DNA from: Planctomycetota bacterium
GTDB taxonomy: Bacteria > Planctomycetota > Phycisphaerae > WQYP01
Reading direction: 5' to 3'
Assembly (NCBI GenBank): GCA_021818445.1
Contig: JAKAEB010000011.1
Location: 2,269 to 66,268 of the forward strand
DNA: 64,000 bases
Part shown: positions 1 to 45,720 of the stretch, in pieces
Layout of the letters: each line of letters opens with the position of its first letter
How positions within the stretch are numbered: the first letter of the stretch is position 1
Notes under the pieces: generated by a model
The model's database searches: none
The model's input: only the letters and a program-made list of their open reading frames with translations
Told to the model about the DNA's origin: nothing
Program-made: the position numbers and the translations under genes

Positions 1-1
1 G

Positions 2-607
2 GGCCGCTGGCTTACCCGCGACCCGATCGGTTACCAAGGCGGAATCAATCTTTACGAATTCGTCCAAAGCAGCCCGGTGGGAAATGTGGATGGGGCGGGG
101 ATGTCGGGCGGCTGGGTTCCCGAAACGGATATCGGCGGTGATACATATTGGGTCGATAATAACACTGGCGCGATTTCATACAGTTACCCAGCCGGCCAGC
201 TGGCACCCGTGGGCAGCAACACGCAAGCCGCCCCGGCGGTGGCCCCCGCGCCGCGAGGGCTAGCGTCCCCGCCGGATTTTCCACCAGCCCCCGCGGGTTC
301 TCCAGTGTGCAACAAATATCCGTGCAGCTACACATACATGGGCGCTAACGCCCAGTGCTTCTGTAAATGCGCCGGGAACAGCCCGTGGTCAAAATATGTA
401 CGCAGTTGCCTGGCCAATCTATACGAGTTCGGCGCGAGCGCCACGCTCGCGCATTTCTCCTGCTATTTTTGGGCAACGGAAAAATTCGGCGTTTTTGGAA
501 TTCCGGCCCTGACCCTTGCACGGTGCTACGAGAAATGTGTGGGTCCCGTTCCGGGCGCACCACCGCCGGGCCGACAATTGTGGCCGTGGCCCCCCACTGC
601 CTTCTAG
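2..607 (+). CDS. RHS repeat-associated core domain protein, 3' end (5' partial, continues upstream of window) carrying a variable Cys-rich C-terminal toxin domain
   Basis: Frame-2 translation from base 2 reads RWLTRDPIGYQGGINLYEFVQSSPVGNVD, the canonical RHS core terminus (DPxGxxGGxNxYxY..NP); the six-frame ORF 77..607 continues the same frame. About 160 aa of Cys/Pro-rich sequence with no recognisable family follows the motif, to the stop at 605-607. Confidence 0.8.
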   Translation, partial: GRWLTRDPIGYQGGINLYEFVQSSPVGNVDGAGMSGGWVPETDIGGDTYWVDNNTGAISYSYPAGQLAPVGSNTQAAPAVAPAPRGLASPPDFPPAPAGSPVCNKYPCSYTYMGANAQCFCKCAGNSPWSKYVRSCLANLYEFGASATLAHFSCYFWATEKFGVFGIPALTLARCYEKCVGPVPGAPPPGRQLWPWPPTAF

Positions 608-831
608 TGAAGTGAACTGGGACGCGGGCCTTTCGTGAGGAAAGGATATTGGCTTTGGGCAAATGACACTTGAAATCGTTGCGTCCCGGCCAGTCCGCTC
701 GCCCAGCGCTGAAAACAAATTCTGCAACGAGGAAAAACAATGTTGTACGTCGGTGATAAAACCACGCCCACTAATCCGAGTGTCCGAATTATGGCGCATC
801 TCTACCGTATGGCCAACGATGGTGAGGGGAG

Positions 832-1140
832 TTGGTGGTGAGGCTGCTGGCATACGTTATAGCCGCTATTAACACGGCGCTCTTTTTCGCGGCCATAGCT
901 GCAAAGTTTGCCCAACCCGGGCAGGGCGACATGTTGAACGGGCAAGCGGGGGATTTTGCCTCCATCGCTATCAGCGCTTGCCTTGGAACATGGTATCTCG
1001 GCAGTATATGCATGCTGCTGCTAATACGGCGCGGCCAGAAATTACCCGATATTATGTACGTCTGGTTGTTCATTACCGGGTTGCCCGTGGTGCTGTTCAG
1101 CTTGGCGATGTTTTTATTCCTGTTGCCCGCTTTTTTATGA
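832..1140 (+). CDS. small integral membrane protein (3 predicted TM helices); candidate immunity protein for the upstream RHS toxin
   Basis: 102-aa ORF immediately downstream of the RHS toxin end, same strand; very hydrophobic (LLAYVIAAINTALFFAAIAAKF, WYLGSICMLLLI, WLFITGLPVVLFSLAMFLFLLPAFL); non-ATG (TTG/GTG) start implied. Confidence 0.4.
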   Translation: MVVRLLAYVIAAINTALFFAAIAAKFAQPGQGDMLNGQAGDFASIAISACLGTWYLGSICMLLLIRRGQKLPDIMYVWLFITGLPVVLFSLAMFLFLLPAFL

Positions 1141-1245: not shown

Positions 1246-2277
1246 ATGATGAGAACGAAAATGGCGGATAACAGCATGAGCGATTTGCGTCTACACGCCG
1301 TCACCGGTGCCTTCGGGTATTCCGGACGGTACATCAGTAAACGACTCCTGGCGGCGGGTATTTCCGTGCGGACATTAACCGCCTCACCACACCGCGCTAA
1401 TCCATTTGGCCAATCCGTAGATGTGCGGGAGTTCCATTGGCAGGATCCGAGAAAACTGGCCGAAGCATTGGCAGGCGCGGAAGTACTGTACAACACGTAC
1501 TGGGTACGCTTCAACAGCCGAATGTTCTGCTTTGCCGAGGCGATAGAAAACAGCCGGCGACTTTTTATCGCGGCAAAAAACGCCGGCGTGCGGCGTATTG
1601 TGCATGTGAGTATCACTAATCCTGATTTTAACAGCCATTTAGAGTATTTCCGCGGCAAAGCGCTGGTTGAACGGGCATTGACAGATTCCGGGGTGGATTT
1701 CACAATTTTGCGACCCGCAGTTCTGTTTGGTAAAGAGGATATTTTAATTAACAACATTGCATGGATGCTGCGGCGGTTGCCAGTCTTCGGTGTTTTTGGC
1801 GATGGCCAATATAAAATGCAACCGATCTACGTTGATGACCTGGCCGAATTAGCAGTTCGTTCCGCTGATGATAAAAACAATCGTGTCATCGACGCCATCG
1901 GCCCCGAAACATTTACCTATCGCGGACTCGTTGAGACCATTGGAACAATCGTTGGGTGCCCCAGGCCCATCATTTCTGTCAGCCCGCAAGTTGGATACCT
2001 GTTTGCCGCTGTCGCCGGAAAAATGGTACATGATGTCATTATCACGCGCGACGAAATTTCTGCCCTGATGGAAGGCCGCCTTTTTGTCGATGCCCCACCG
2101 GCCGGGTTAACCAGCCTGACCCAGTGGGCGCAGGACAATTGCGACTGGCTTGGCCAGCGTTACGCCAGTGAAATGGCGCGCCGCAGGGATCGGCAAAGCG
2201 ACTATATCGCCCTGCGCGGCGACGGACAGAATGCCGATCCGGGGCGGGCTGGGCCGGGCCATCCCAGCGCGAGGTAA
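1246..2277 (+). CDS. NAD(P)-binding Rossmann-fold protein, atypical SDR/NmrA-like epimerase-dehydratase family
   Basis: N-terminal HAVTGAFGYSGRYI glycine-rich dinucleotide-binding motif; overall resemblance to the NAD-dependent epimerase/dehydratase / complex-I 39-kDa-like family. Confidence 0.6.
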   Translation: MMRTKMADNSMSDLRLHAVTGAFGYSGRYISKRLLAAGISVRTLTASPHRANPFGQSVDVREFHWQDPRKLAEALAGAEVLYNTYWVRFNSRMFCFAEAIENSRRLFIAAKNAGVRRIVHVSITNPDFNSHLEYFRGKALVERALTDSGVDFTILRPAVLFGKEDILINNIAWMLRRLPVFGVFGDGQYKMQPIYVDDLAELAVRSADDKNNRVIDAIGPETFTYRGLVETIGTIVGCPRPIISVSPQVGYLFAAVAGKMVHDVIITRDEISALMEGRLFVDAPPAGLTSLTQWAQDNCDWLGQRYASEMARRRDRQSDYIALRGDGQNADPGRAGPGHPSAR

Positions 2278-7440: not shown

Positions 7441-7560
7441 GCGAAAGCCATGCCGCCCGGAGCGTGTGCCGGAAACGCCGCAATTTTGTGATGAACGCAC
7501 AATGAGGTTATGCTCGGCATGCGTGAGATTTTTAGTTTGCCAGACGGGGTATGCAAGCGG

Positions 7561-9456
7561 ATGAGGCGACCAGAACTTAAGCACGGCAAAAAATGGTGGT
7601 TGGCGGCAGCGGGCCTGTTATCTTTGAACGTCCTGGGGGGTTGTTCCACTGGACCAAGCTCATCGACTCCTCCCATTGCGGCGCAAGACCGGGTACCACT
7701 GCCGTCGGTTTACCCGGCATTGCGGGGAACGGTTGGCCAGTACGTGGGGTTGGGATACTCAGGGCCGATTGTTGTGCGTGGATGGGGTTTGGTGGCGGGC
7801 CTGCCAAATACTGGTAGCGGACAGATGCCACCACCGATCCGCAAGTTGATGCTTAATCGCCTGTTGAAAGCGGGCGTTGGTTTTTATACCCGTGGAACGG
7901 GCAATATTGATCCGAATCAGATATTAAACAGCCGCCAGGTGTCGGCTGTGGCGGTGGAGGGGGCGATTCCACCATTGGCCGTGCAGGGCACAACCTTTGA
8001 TGTCTATCTCAAGGCGCTACCCAACACCAGTACAACGAGTTTGGAAAATGGATTACTTTGGCCGGTCGGTTTGCGTGTGCACATCCGTCTGGTGGATCAG
8101 AGTGATGTGCTGGCGCGGGCGCGGGGTCCGGTTTTTTGTGATCCGTTCACTTCCGACGGCAAACTTAAGCCGGCCAACGCCATCGTGCGTGAGGGGCGTG
8201 TTATCGGCGGTGCGATGGTGGAGCACAGCGTGCCGGCGGTGTTGGAACTTTACAGTCCGTCGTACCGCATCACCGATCTGATTCAGCGTGTAATCAATCA
8301 GCATTACGGCAACTATCCGCCGGTGGCCACCGCGGAAAATGACCGGGTGGTCAAGGTGCGGATTATCCATCGCTATCGGCATTATCCGATGCGGTTTGTC
8401 CGGCGGGTGCTGGATTTGTATCTGGCCGGAAATGTGCCGGGATTCAACGCCCACCAGACGAAGGTGATCATCAAAGCGTTGCATGATCCGACCGCGCCGC
8501 ATGCCGATCTGGGTGTGGCGCTGGAGCAATTGGGGCAGCCCATTCTTCCCATATTGCAAAAACACTATAATTCCGCCAACCCCGCGGTTGGTTATTACTG
8601 CCTGCAGGCCGGGGCCCGCCTCGGCGACAGTGACGCCATTACGGACATAAGTAAAATTGCATTGGATACAGCGAGTCCGTTTCAACGCAAGGCGATTTAT
8701 ACGTTAAGCCACTGCCACGATCGCTTTCTGGCGGGGGTGACTTTTCGCAAGTTGCTGCGGTCGGCGTCGCGCCGGGTACAAATCATGGGGTATCAGGCGC
8801 TGCTGGCGATTCACTCATCGATTGTTTACTCGCAGGAAATAAGTCAGAAATTTATCATGGATATTGTCCCCGGACACCAGACATGCACGATCTATGTCAC
8901 CACCCATCACGTGCCGCGTATCGCGTTTCTGGGGCGTATCCCAACGCTGAAACCGGGAGCGCTTTATGTCAGCCCGCACGACGCATTAACGGTGAATTAT
9001 TTACCGTCACATACAACCACCAAGGGAGGTAAAAAGGCCGGCTCCAGTGCGGAGCCCGTTCTGCTGTATTACCGTAATCCGCTTTCCGGCCAAACCGTGA
9101 CACTCAGATGCGGGACAGCCTTGCCATCGATTTTAGCCACGCTGGCCGGAGCGCCCAATCCCTTTGGCAGGCATTTCAATCCGCATCAGGCTTTTATCGG
9201 TGCGTCGTATCAGCGGGTGGTGGAGATGCTCTACACGCTGTGCCATACCGGACAAATTAATGCCCGCTTTCAGATGGAAACCATTACGGGCAAAAATCGA
9301 TCTCTGATGGCATCATTAAATAAACCGCGGCCAAGCGGCAGCACGATGACAAAATCTGTCGTTGCTGGCTCGGCTACCCAGCCGGTCTCAACACCGTTCA
9401 GTACCAATCTGCCGGGTGAGCTTCCCGCGGGGACGCAGAGTTCGCCGCAGCATTGA
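7561..9456 (+). CDS. FlgI (flagellar P-ring)-like domain lipoprotein with C-terminal HEAT-like repeat extension
   Basis: Lipoprotein signal (WWLAAAGLLSLNVLGGCS). The N-terminal half aligns with FlgI (GWGLVAGLPNTGSG vs GYGLVVGLDGTGD; AIPPLAVQGTTFDVYL vs SLPPFGRQGQTIDVVV). The C-terminal about 300 aa has repeated alpha-helical HEAT/PBS-lyase-like units. The ORF begins at 7510; the start was moved to the Met preceding the signal peptide. Confidence 0.55.
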   Translation: MRRPELKHGKKWWLAAAGLLSLNVLGGCSTGPSSSTPPIAAQDRVPLPSVYPALRGTVGQYVGLGYSGPIVVRGWGLVAGLPNTGSGQMPPPIRKLMLNRLLKAGVGFYTRGTGNIDPNQILNSRQVSAVAVEGAIPPLAVQGTTFDVYLKALPNTSTTSLENGLLWPVGLRVHIRLVDQSDVLARARGPVFCDPFTSDGKLKPANAIVREGRVIGGAMVEHSVPAVLELYSPSYRITDLIQRVINQHYGNYPPVATAENDRVVKVRIIHRYRHYPMRFVRRVLDLYLAGNVPGFNAHQTKVIIKALHDPTAPHADLGVALEQLGQPILPILQKHYNSANPAVGYYCLQAGARLGDSDAITDISKIALDTASPFQRKAIYTLSHCHDRFLAGVTFRKLLRSASRRVQIMGYQALLAIHSSIVYSQEISQKFIMDIVPGHQTCTIYVTTHHVPRIAFLGRIPTLKPGALYVSPHDALTVNYLPSHTTTKGGKKAGSSAEPVLLYYRNPLSGQTVTLRCGTALPSILATLAGAPNPFGRHFNPHQAFIGASYQRVVEMLYTLCHTGQINARFQMETITGKNRSLMASLNKPRPSGSTMTKSVVAGSATQPVSTPFSTNLPGELPAGTQSSPQH

Positions 9457-9540: not shown

Positions 9541-11031
9541 TTAGACGTTGGCCCGCTGCTTTCGCAGTTGGGCGAGGCGCTGTCGCGCATCACGGAAATT
9601 AAAATCCCATTGTGTGATTTTGCTGTAGATTTTTTCGGCTTCCGGCCCTTGGTTGGTCAGTTCGTAAGCCCGCGCCAGCCAGTAGTGCATTTCTTTGCTG
9701 CGGCTGTCGCCGGTAGACGCCAATTCATAGTTTTCAATCGCGCGCTGGAGTGTTTCGCTCGCCTCAAGGTGCATGCCCTGATCCAAAAAGGCCCGCCCCA
9801 GTAATTGCAGGGCATCGGCCCGGTGCTTCGGACTGGCCTGGGCCTGCTGCAGAATGCCGATGGCCTCTTCCGAACGATGGGCGCGATAAAGGCGAAGGCC
9901 ATACTCGTACGCGATATTGGCGTCGGATGGGAAATTTTTCATTCTTTCCGCAAACTCATCAACTTCAAATGCAAGCTTTTCCGCATCGATATCTGCGATT
10001 TTTTTTATCAGTTCCTTATCATCCGGATGGGCCTTAAGTTTTTCATTCAAGATGCGTAAGTCGCGCCGATATTTGCGAATGCGCACATCGCCCTGCAGCA
10101 TTTTGTAGCGGTACGTGCGGGTTTCTTTGTATGCCTGTTCCAGCACGGCAATGGCTTCCTGGTCGCATTCGTCCGATTCCACATCGAGCAAAGCCTTGAC
10201 CAATTTAGCGACATTCTGTGCATCGAGAGGATTTTGCTCCCACGCTTCGCGTGCATCCTCCACCATTTTGATGCGAAATTCTTCCGTTTTATTCAGCGCA
10301 TCTTTTTGCAGAAGTTCCTGGGTCACTTCTTTGTTGGCAAGCGACTCTTTGAAGTCCGGTACCTTTTCGTATCCGCCGCGCTTGAGCGTTTCACGCGTGC
10401 CTAAATCTTTAATCCGCTGATCCAAGGCGGCATCGTTCGGCGTTAGCGCAAAGGCCAACTGCACGGCCTCGCCGGCTTTGGAAAATTCCGACACCTGTTC
10501 AAAGTAGTCTGCCATTTCCAGATATTGTTTCGGGTTGGGTGTCTTGCTGGTGCTGATACCCTGAAGCACAAAAGGCCCAAACCAAGTGATAATTTCCCGG
10601 TAGCCCCCGAGTGCGGCATGCTTCATCATGTTAAGCATGTGACCGATATTGCCGGGGTCTTTGGCCAGCAGATATTCAGCATTGAGCATCTGCTCTTTTG
10701 GCGACTTGCCGGAAAAATAGGGCTTGACACCGAGGAAACCGCCAGCCGGTTTGCCACCACTGACTTTGCGACGTAAAGAGACTTCGCGCAGGGCCTTGTG
10801 CTCATCGAGATTTTCGGGCTCTCGCAGAAGCCCTTGTATGTACATGTCCAAGGCGTAGTCGTAGTTACCGGTGTCAGCGACCGTCTTGGCGCGATCAAAA
10901 AATGACTTTCCCTTACCCGGGCCTTCTACAACTACAGTCTCTTGTGCTTTGGCCATATCAACTTCCGAAACCATCAAAAACCGCCAGCCAAAACTGCACT
11001 GGCATCGACCACGAATATCTCTTTCTCTCAC
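9541..11031 (-). CDS. tetratricopeptide (TPR) repeat protein
   Basis: Multiple TPR-like helical repeats (AYEYGLRLYRAH..., ALQLLGRAFLDQG..., HYWLARAYELTNQG...). The start may be the internal Met (MAKAQ) at about 10956. Confidence 0.6.
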   Translation of the reverse strand: MRERDIRGRCQCSFGWRFLMVSEVDMAKAQETVVVEGPGKGKSFFDRAKTVADTGNYDYALDMYIQGLLREPENLDEHKALREVSLRRKVSGGKPAGGFLGVKPYFSGKSPKEQMLNAEYLLAKDPGNIGHMLNMMKHAALGGYREIITWFGPFVLQGISTSKTPNPKQYLEMADYFEQVSEFSKAGEAVQLAFALTPNDAALDQRIKDLGTRETLKRGGYEKVPDFKESLANKEVTQELLQKDALNKTEEFRIKMVEDAREAWEQNPLDAQNVAKLVKALLDVESDECDQEAIAVLEQAYKETRTYRYKMLQGDVRIRKYRRDLRILNEKLKAHPDDKELIKKIADIDAEKLAFEVDEFAERMKNFPSDANIAYEYGLRLYRAHRSEEAIGILQQAQASPKHRADALQLLGRAFLDQGMHLEASETLQRAIENYELASTGDSRSKEMHYWLARAYELTNQGPEAEKIYSKITQWDFNFRDARQRLAQLRKQRANV

Positions 11032-34141: not shown

Positions 34142-34277
34142 CGCATTTGACTGCGAGGGTTAAATGTTGATACTTATGGGTGTGGCGTTGCCTTTGGCGG
34201 CCACGGGGATGGCGCTGGATTGCAGCGGCATGGGGGTAGGAGATACGGCAGGGGAAGAGATGCAGCGCGAAATTGAT

Positions 34278-34351
<74 letters not shown>

Positions 34352-34367
34352 ATTCCTTACATGACAG

Positions 34368-45224: not shown

Positions 45225-45720
45225 CTGGCCATGGACCCATCACGAACCATTGCGCAGGTAGAGATGCGCACGTTCTAAAGGCCCGGCCAAAAACGAATTA
45301 AAAACAACCAATCGCGACCCTGCGTCCCAAACTCGCGAGGACAAATCGGGTCGTCATCAGGCAGGTCTTCTGGCTTAGGGCAGCAAGGGGGAGCAGCCTT
45401 CCCAACAACAACCGCGGCCCTCGGGACGAGGACGTTAACCGGCGTGCGCCGGTGCGGTCGGGTTTAGTGGCTGCGCCCGATGGATTGCCCATCACAGCGG
45501 CGCGTCCGCGGCGGAATTTAACCGCCTTCCCTTTTCACTCGCCAACGTGGCGAGCACCTGACGGGGAAGAGGATAGCATTTTTCTGCGGGATGGCAAGCG
45601 AACATTTTTCGCGCCGCGTGTTTGTACAAATTTTGTGCAGCTTTGACAGACTTTCCACCGCCGCGATATATTTGCTCCTCGGGTGGACAATCGAAAGATT
45701 GAAAGGCGGGGCGACTTAAC

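Follow-up and report, generated by a model that had tools for sequence, protein, structure and literature searches.

An apparently displaced orphan rhs-CT/immunity module in a Planctomycetota contig carries a Cys-rich domain of a widespread, uncharacterised family

The first 1140 nucleotides (nt) of a 64,000-nt stretch of DNA from a Planctomycetota bacterium (contig JAKAEB010000011.1, positions 2,269 to 66,268) probably constitute a displaced orphan rhs-CT/immunity module, a reading to which we give a probability of about 70%. The module would consist of the tail of an RHS polymorphic toxin gene, which retains an intact toxin domain of a widespread family, and of a gene for an immunity protein with three transmembrane (TM) segments. 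The whole 64-kb stretch is called the window below, and positions refer to it unless a contig is named. The region downstream of the RHS core falls into four parts, namely a WW-fold module, a Pro-rich linker, a helical domain of about 80 amino acids (aa), and a Pro/Trp tail. The features of the module, with the basis of each assignment, are as follows (AF2, AlphaFold2).

2..103, + strand: truncated RHS-associated core domain, its last 34 aa (TIGR03696 match; motifs DPIGY and DGAGM)
104..190, + strand: predicted WW-fold pre-toxin module SGGWVPETDIGGDTYWVDNNTGAISYSYP, directly after the cleavage motif (AF2, Foldseek)
191..298, + strand: Pro/Ala-rich linker of 36 aa (read from the sequence)
299..538, + strand: all-helical Cys-rich toxin domain of about 80 aa, unclassified family (phmmer, alignment A1, AF2)
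539..607, + strand: Pro/Trp-rich C-terminal tail VGPVPGAPPPGRQLWPWPPTAF and stop codon (low pLDDT)
832..1140, + strand: candidate cognate immunity gene, 101-102 aa, three TM segments (homologues, hydropathy, public gene calls)

The RHS core tail and the limits of the toxin gene

Translated directly, frame 2 from position 2 to 604 gives GRWLTRDPIGYQGGINLYEFVQSSPVGNVDGAGM and, behind it, another 167 aa up to the stop codons TAG TGA. The 34 N-terminal residues correspond to positions 43-76 of the 76 positions of TIGR03696 (Rhs_assc_core) with 32.5 bits, a score equal to the cut-off, and the preliminary description was right to place an RHS core terminus in this frame. It also held that the window opens inside an RHS/YD-repeat protein, which proved incorrect. 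Public contigs that reach upstream of the window (L001-L003) show that the open reading frame (ORF) starts 108 nt (36 codons) before it, with limits L001:9998-10714, and the identical 237-aa product (P0001) is encoded on nine public contigs, two of which are NCBI metagenome-assembled genome (MAG) assemblies. The complete ORF scores 60.1 bits against TIGR03696, over positions 21-76 of 76 only, and it contains no YD repeats, no signal peptide, and no other delivery domain. The YD/RHS-repeat shell of a full-length RHS polymorphic toxin, of about 1000 aa or more, is thus missing from this ORF. The 201 window-encoded residues have no RHS_repeat or other Pfam match at E<=1, the sequence after the core tail has no NCBIfam match other than TIGR03696, and a tblastn search of the window reveals no further RHS core. 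The 237-aa ORF is an orphan RHS fragment with a truncated core and no shell.

In RHS proteins, the cut comes behind the second of a pair of DPxGL-type motifs, which contribute the catalytic Asp (PMC8636562). In the window, the first aspartyl-protease motif, DPIGY (nt 20-34), is followed 18 residues later, a spacing of 17-18 residues being usual, by a degenerate second motif, DGAGM (nt 89-103), which keeps the Asp. Since the cut follows the second motif, the separable part begins at nt 104 and not, as had been proposed, directly after DPIGYQGG. As in other RHS polymorphic toxins, a variable domain follows the cleavage motif, and an immunity-type gene lies downstream.

A widespread Cys-rich helical domain

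An exhaustive phmmer search over 1.84 billion representatives, each standing for a cluster at 50% identity, returned 227 matches at E<=1e-3 and 109 at E<=1e-10, so that the family comprises at least 227 clusters. It emerged only in this search: a word-indexed protein search gave two matches for the C-terminal region, one of them a relative, and 13 for a profile. A contig scan with the single protein found no relative, and the genome loci discussed below were retrieved by an alignment-based scan. The match nearly always covers the C-terminal 90 or so residues of the protein, and the domain ends 0-38 residues from the C-terminus in nearly all members. Its carriers range from stand-alone ORFs of 90-103 aa to RHS proteins of 1288-2334 aa with RHS_repeat and DUF6531 matches; in P0027, it follows a canonical DPTGL. 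The MAGs in which they occur are labelled as Planctomycetota, Verrucomicrobiota, Acidobacteriota, Nitrospirota, Desulfobacterota, Spirochaetia, and Zixibacteria. Plasmids gave no match to the domain, and IMG/VR gave a single contig.

A distinct layout is found in P0008, P0018, P0029 (identical to L114:3671-4336), P0047, P0082, P0084, P0086, and P0119. These are mini-proteins that lack a YD-repeat shell and consist of a Sec signal peptide, an RHS tail, a spacer, and the toxin domain. Their signal peptide cleavage site, between ASA and YY, abuts the RHS tail motif YYxPxxGRWxxRDP. Among 150 members, 8 to 24 have a Sec signal peptide, some full-length carriers among them, and in eight it stands directly before the RHS tail.

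Alignment A1 (63 members) shows 11 invariant positions, C17, Y20, Y26, C33, C35, W43, R48, C50, H65, C68, and C93; with C37 and C89, which are nearly invariant, this makes eight conserved cysteines. A CxCxC motif is present, and a D/N-S pair is also kept. The window copy retains every invariant residue, including Y106, W129, R134, and H151 (numbered on the 201 window-encoded residues). Across 135 members, C37 and C89 are lost together in six sequences and never singly, C50 and C68 are lost together once, as are C17 and C35. With these three pairs set by co-loss, C33 is left with C93. Such paired losses point to four disulfides, probably C17-C35, C33-C93, C37-C89, and C50-C68 in A1 numbering, rather than to a metal site. 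On the window-encoded residues, these pairs would be C103-C121, C119-C179, C123-C175, and C136-C154.

The domain is soluble in character, with a mean grand average of hydropathy (GRAVY) of -0.28; only four of 135 domain segments contain a 19-residue span with a hydropathy of at least 1.6, and the maximum in the window copy is 0.97. Its AF2 model consists of five helices (pLDDT 90, pTM 0.84). No match was found in Pfam, NCBIfam, PDB, or BFVD, and Foldseek gave no structural neighbour. The preliminary description had suggested a separable, unclassified toxin-type domain at the C-terminus and had proposed structure prediction against toxin families as a check. Both the model without a neighbour and the position of the domain at the extreme C-terminus of 227 representatives, full-length RHS proteins included, bear it out. 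The family is real, well supported, widespread, and uncharacterised, and its fold is predicted to be new.

The predicted WW-fold module, the linker, and the tail

A weak phmmer match to NEDD4-type WW domains prompted an alignment of six such segments. The first Trp and the final Pro of the WW signature are invariant in it, and the position of the second Trp is occupied by Tyr in the window copy. The Pfam WW model gives sub-threshold matches in four of the six members and scores 14.6 bits on window positions 104-190, against a cut-off of 26.9. The AF2 model is a three-stranded sheet (pLDDT 78), and the top 50 Foldseek matches in the PDB are all WW domains, with TM-scores of 0.5-0.7 but E-values of 0.06-0.3. 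The module, single or doubled, also follows the RHS tails of P0044 and P0122, which have unrelated Gly-rich C-termini, and of P0147, which has yet another C-terminus. The phrase "WW domain" does not occur in the available part of the text of the 2012 polymorphic-toxin survey. The earlier claim that the Cys- and Pro-rich C-terminus matches no toxin family stands for the helical domain; about 30 aa of the stretch form this predicted WW-fold module, which had been missed.

The relatives P0002, P0004, and L006 carry linkers of different sequence and length before the same domain, and the Pro/Trp tail is conserved in the closest relatives only (P0004, P0005, and P0006/L006). The Pro-rich linker and the WPWPP tail could be the WW module's own ligands.

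The candidate immunity gene

The ORF at 832..1140 starts at TTG 832 or at GTG 835, the latter being the public call, and is preceded by GGTGAGGGGAG. Hydropathy places three hydrophobic segments at about residues 5-27, 45-65, and 74-102 of its product, which would expose a periplasmic loop of only about 14 aa. It is annotated as a gene on nine public contigs. The three-TM ORF with a non-ATG start that had been noted at this place is therefore present as described.

A word-indexed search with this ORF returned only itself. Among the 26 genome loci that have sequence downstream of the Cys-rich domain, 23 encode there a small protein of 86-194 aa that has two to five hydrophobic segments, in most cases three or four. 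Its ORF starts at -28 to +176 nt relative to the toxin stop. A small multi-TM ORF likewise follows the domain in L101 and L114, two loci reached by other routes. Homologues of the window ORF lie directly downstream of the domain in L006 (41% identity), L007 (37%), and L008 (26%), and, detected through L008, in L012. Identity to the window falls in parallel for the two proteins, with 74, 61, 48, and 46% for the toxin and 41, 37, 26, and 19% for the TM protein. Because homologues adjoin the domain in four other loci, the immunity reading passes the conservation test proposed for it in the preliminary description, namely whether such homologues are paired with the same C-terminal domain elsewhere. 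The product of 832..1140 is thus a candidate immunity protein of the Cys-rich domain. Across all loci, the TM proteins form at least five groups without mutually detectable homology (hhalign probability <1%), so that what is conserved is a small polytopic membrane character and not one TM family. A common origin of the five groups was considered and could not be detected at that probability.

Some smaller features of this region were also noted. A 33-aa ORF at 740..841, a gene in the public annotation, is not conserved in relatives, and the RNA fold of the intergenic segment is unremarkable (z = -0.27). A 322-aa antisense ORF (789-1757, - strand) overlaps both the TM ORF and the downstream oxidoreductase gene and was judged spurious from this overlap alone.

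Two tandem orphan modules

On contig L001, the window ORF is the second of two tandem orphan rhs-CT modules, the other, orphan 1, lying 2.3 kb upstream. The elements involved are the following.

L001:7673-7854 and L001:9990-10171: copies of the core-tail repeat (182-nt direct repeat, 93% identity)
L001:7681-8463: orphan 1, upstream of the window, a 260-aa ORF with an unrelated C-terminus of about 190 aa
L001:8470-9984: 504-aa ORF between the two orphans, with a lipobox-like N-terminus and weak WD40/beta-propeller matches
L001:7673-7854 and 9990-10171, L002:6934-7161, L006:4164: conserved orphan junction

The repeat is common to both orphans and begins 8 nt before each start. Their N-termini are 65% identical over 91 aa, that of orphan 1 (MVAF.ENKIL..NADAETQNYYVRNRYYLPTLGRWLTRDPIGYQGGINLYEYV) resembling that of the window ORF, and their C-termini are unrelated. 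The 504-aa ORF is a candidate periplasmic immunity gene of orphan 1. The core fragment before the window's toxin thus repeats another rhs copy, as expected of an orphan module. By contrast, a position downstream of a full-length "main" rhs gene, the other hallmark of such modules, is not seen in contigs L001 and L002. Orphan 1 is preceded in L001 by opposite-strand housekeeping genes, GATase_5 and RecJ, and in L002 by a Peptidase_S49 gene, and no full-length rhs gene occurs near the orphans in the available contigs or in the window. At the start of the modules lies a conserved junction, TGATGGTCGCAYTG...AAAAT; translation from it yields MVA(L/F/I)... N-termini, and it also fits the pattern TTGATG-17-TAAAAT. 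Of the 151 retrieved proteins, seven have an N-terminus beginning with MVA.

Downstream of L001:7840, two assemblies of one and the same organism agree completely. They are 19% divergent in the core-tail repeat region of orphan 1, with the differences clustered at L001:7697-7839, and are unrelated upstream of about L001:7640 (comparison of L001:7400-7840 with L002:6661-7101). The breakpoint is explained either by recombination at the RHS repeat or by a chimeric assembly. In L006, a Planctomycetota MAG and the nearest relative in the genome collection, the domain is carried by a 723-aa ORF with YD-repeat and core matches. This ORF is the last of several RHS-tail genes and is followed by the two downstream genes that are also found in the window. 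The presence of shell sequence on the L006 copy suggests that the window copy has lost its shell-coding part.

The neighbouring oxidoreductase gene

The candidate immunity gene is followed by a gene of the short-chain dehydrogenase/reductase (SDR) type.

1246..2277, + strand: NDUFA9-like NAD(P)-binding SDR gene (Pfam NAD_binding_10/Epimerase/NmrA)

The best PDB matches of its product are 39-kDa subunits of complex I (NDUFA9). In nine of the 29 toxin loci (the window, L006, L007, L013, L017, L018, L025, L026, and L031), an SDR homologue follows the toxin/TM pair directly and in the same orientation. The labels of their MAGs name three phyla, and their TM proteins belong to three different groups; no other neighbours are shared, and in L013 and L017, the TM stop overlaps the SDR start. 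The other 20 toxin loci are devoid of the SDR gene, and the TM gene accompanies the toxin in loci with and without the SDR gene alike. Conversely, among 58 metagenome loci of the SDR family, L063 has an upstream TM gene and L101 has both toxin and TM gene, whereas 56 have neither, and the upstream neighbour is otherwise highly variable. The SDR gene is probably not part of the cassette, and the linkage is best explained by a variable, insertion-prone site upstream of a common gene. On the same counts, the idea that the TM protein is the partner of the SDR gene and not of the toxin was rejected.

Proposed mechanism and alternative explanations

In the mechanism that we propose, the toxin ORF keeps only the last 55 or so residues of the RHS-associated core and has neither shell nor secretion signal. 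The four putative disulfides imply action outside the cytoplasm, in the periplasm of the target. From there, a soluble enzyme or tight binder would attack the inner membrane or a membrane-bound molecule, probably through the invariant Arg, His, Tyr, and Trp, and the polytopic immunity protein would block it at the membrane. A periplasm-acting, membrane-directed toxin with an inner-membrane immunity protein appears most likely, since the disulfides, the Sec signals of some relatives, and a membrane partner exposing a short loop all point to a site of action outside the cytoplasm, at or on the inner membrane. The orphan alone could not be deployed; it would be a store of toxin diversity, available for transfer onto a full-length rhs gene by recombination at the homologous core tail, and its immunity gene would stay useful. 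A bolder version, which seems improbable to us, is that the domain combines its new fold with a new activity against a membrane target exposed to the periplasm, that adjacency to the SDR gene reflects a functional link, for instance to resistance or to the target, and not an integration hot spot, and that the WW fold holds the toxin's own Pro-rich segments.

Several observations weigh against the displaced orphan module and the activity proposed for it. The second cleavage motif is degenerate (DGAGM). The existence of at least five apparently unrelated TM groups is unusual for a single toxin family, and three of the 26 loci have no multi-TM ORF at the threshold, L014 and L025 having none and L009 a single-TM one. 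The recombination partner is hypothetical, full-length rhs genes being absent from the contigs around the orphans and from the window, and a chimeric assembly could account for the difference between strains at the repeat. Finally, for a predicted fold without a known neighbour, the proposed activity is a guess.

Among other explanations, a working stand-alone gene, with its own promoter and a product used without an RHS shell (for example by being loaded into or handed to another carrier), is unlikely. It would account for a toxin domain that keeps every invariant residue, and the in-frame start with a sigma-70-like TTGATG-17-TAAAAT at the conserved 5' junction of both orphans fits it, as do the orphan-like proteins starting with MVA(L/I)... 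that recur among other representatives and the shell-less proteins of the family composed of signal peptide, RHS tail, and domain. The window ORF, however, has no signal peptide or other delivery domain, and the promoter is a consensus match inside an annotated ORF, one of nine found where 2.9 were expected, two of the nine being the same repeat. We also regard as improbable, and somewhat more so, a domain that forms colicin-like pores or depolarises the membrane and is neutralised inside the bilayer by the TM protein. Pore-forming colicins and membrane-acting bacteriocins typically have small polytopic membrane proteins for immunity, and the immunity candidate exposes only its short periplasmic loop. 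The window copy, like nearly all of the family, nevertheless has no hydrophobic segment of TM length and no hydrophobic helical hairpin able to span the membrane, as such toxins have. Four disulfides would hinder membrane insertion, and the set of invariant polar residues (R, H, Y, and D/N-S) suggests a site of binding or catalysis. From this solubility, the lack of a membrane-spanning stretch, and the invariant polar residues, we infer that an enzyme or tight binder is favoured over a colicin-type pore.

Two further readings carry much less weight. It is very improbable that the domain is no toxin at all and that its gene, together with those of the TM protein and the NDUFA9-like oxidoreductase, makes up an operon for membrane-associated redox chemistry or metal handling. 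The three genes are indeed adjacent and co-oriented in the nine SDR-linked loci, with differing surroundings and, in two of them, overlapping TM and SDR genes, and the domain has a CxCxC motif and an invariant His. Against this, the domain holds the toxin position after DPxGL in full-length RHS proteins, the paired Cys losses fit disulfides and not a metal cluster, most toxin loci are without the SDR gene, and nearly all SDR-family loci are without the other two genes and have highly variable upstream neighbours. Membership in the Lipocone superfamily, as a Min-Wnt-type toxin acting on lipid head groups, is extremely improbable and was rejected. Helical Min-Wnt toxin tips on polymorphic toxins have been described together with an integral-membrane 4-TM candidate immunity protein (PMC12419801), and the model of our domain has five helices. 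Nevertheless, hhalign of A1 against 21 published Min-Wnt sequences gave a probability of 0.09%, the His (H2), Glu (H3), and Asp (H4) positions and the active-site motifs (DAFRH, HE, and MDLxNN) are absent from A1, none of the 37 supplementary files of that paper (PMC12419801) contains the motifs CFCKCAG, KCAGDS, or KCAGNS of the Cys-rich family, and Foldseek returned no Wnt, SAA, or TelC structure. Secreted phospholipase A2 (PLA2) was rejected too, the relevant Asp position being variable and no PLA2 structure appearing among the Foldseek matches at E<=10. It had been considered for the H-x-x-C-Y spacing of the domain, which resembles the catalytic His-Asp-x-Cys-Tyr motif of these enzymes.

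Comparison with known systems

The closest known arrangement to the displaced module is that of the orphan rhs-CT/rhsI modules of Enterobacteria, reportedly described by Koskiniemi et al. in 2014, for example in Salmonella Typhimurium LT2. In both cases, a toxin-CT fragment keeps a stretch of rhs core and is followed by an immunity gene, in tandem with another module, and the repeated core segment gives homology for recombination. The window differs in having opposite-strand housekeeping genes upstream, in the available contigs, in place of a full-length rhs gene, in its very short core (about 55 aa), and in its planctomycetotal host. No marker of a type VI secretion system was seen on the carriers of the Cys-rich domain.

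With the RHS/TcC toxins that have an aspartyl-protease core (PMC8636562), the window ORF shares two motifs of the DPxG type 18 residues apart, the second of them degenerate, and a variable toxin domain after them, and the relatives P0027, L006, and L019-L030 carry the domain after a canonical DPxGL on a real RHS shell. Unlike these toxins, the window copy has DGAGM and no shell, and its presumably disulfide-rich cargo lies behind a WW-fold module. Min-Wnt/Lipocone tips (PMC12419801) would be the closest functional analogy in the literature. They too are small helical tips on polymorphic toxins with predicted periplasmic or membrane action and polytopic immunity candidates, but there is no sequence, motif, or profile similarity, and the conserved residues are eight Cys, Y, W, R, and H here instead of H, E, and D.

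Some periplasm-acting antibacterial effectors need disulfide formation in the target, such as Serratia Ssp2 and Ssp4, for which DsbA is involved. As would be the case for the Cys-rich domain, their activity depends on oxidative folding outside the cytoplasm. They show no homology to it, and its own disulfides are predicted from covariation only.

Other features of the window

Elsewhere in the window, a cobalamin riboswitch (45343-45576, - strand; 96 bits), a tRNA-Met gene (34277-34352, + strand), and a gene for a FlgI-family flagellar P-ring protein (7510-9456, + strand), unusually long with about 645 aa in the public call, were noted.

Implications

Polymorphic toxins such as those of the RHS type are a productive source of new enzymatic activities and folds. 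The architecture of the cassette described here is standard; what is added is a toxin domain with its predicted fold and a bacterial WW-fold module. The domain is not a one-off, and it combines a confidently predicted structure unlike anything solved with a clear genetic partner. Through it, a new mode of attack on the bacterial envelope may come to light, in phyla whose interbacterial weapons have barely been studied.

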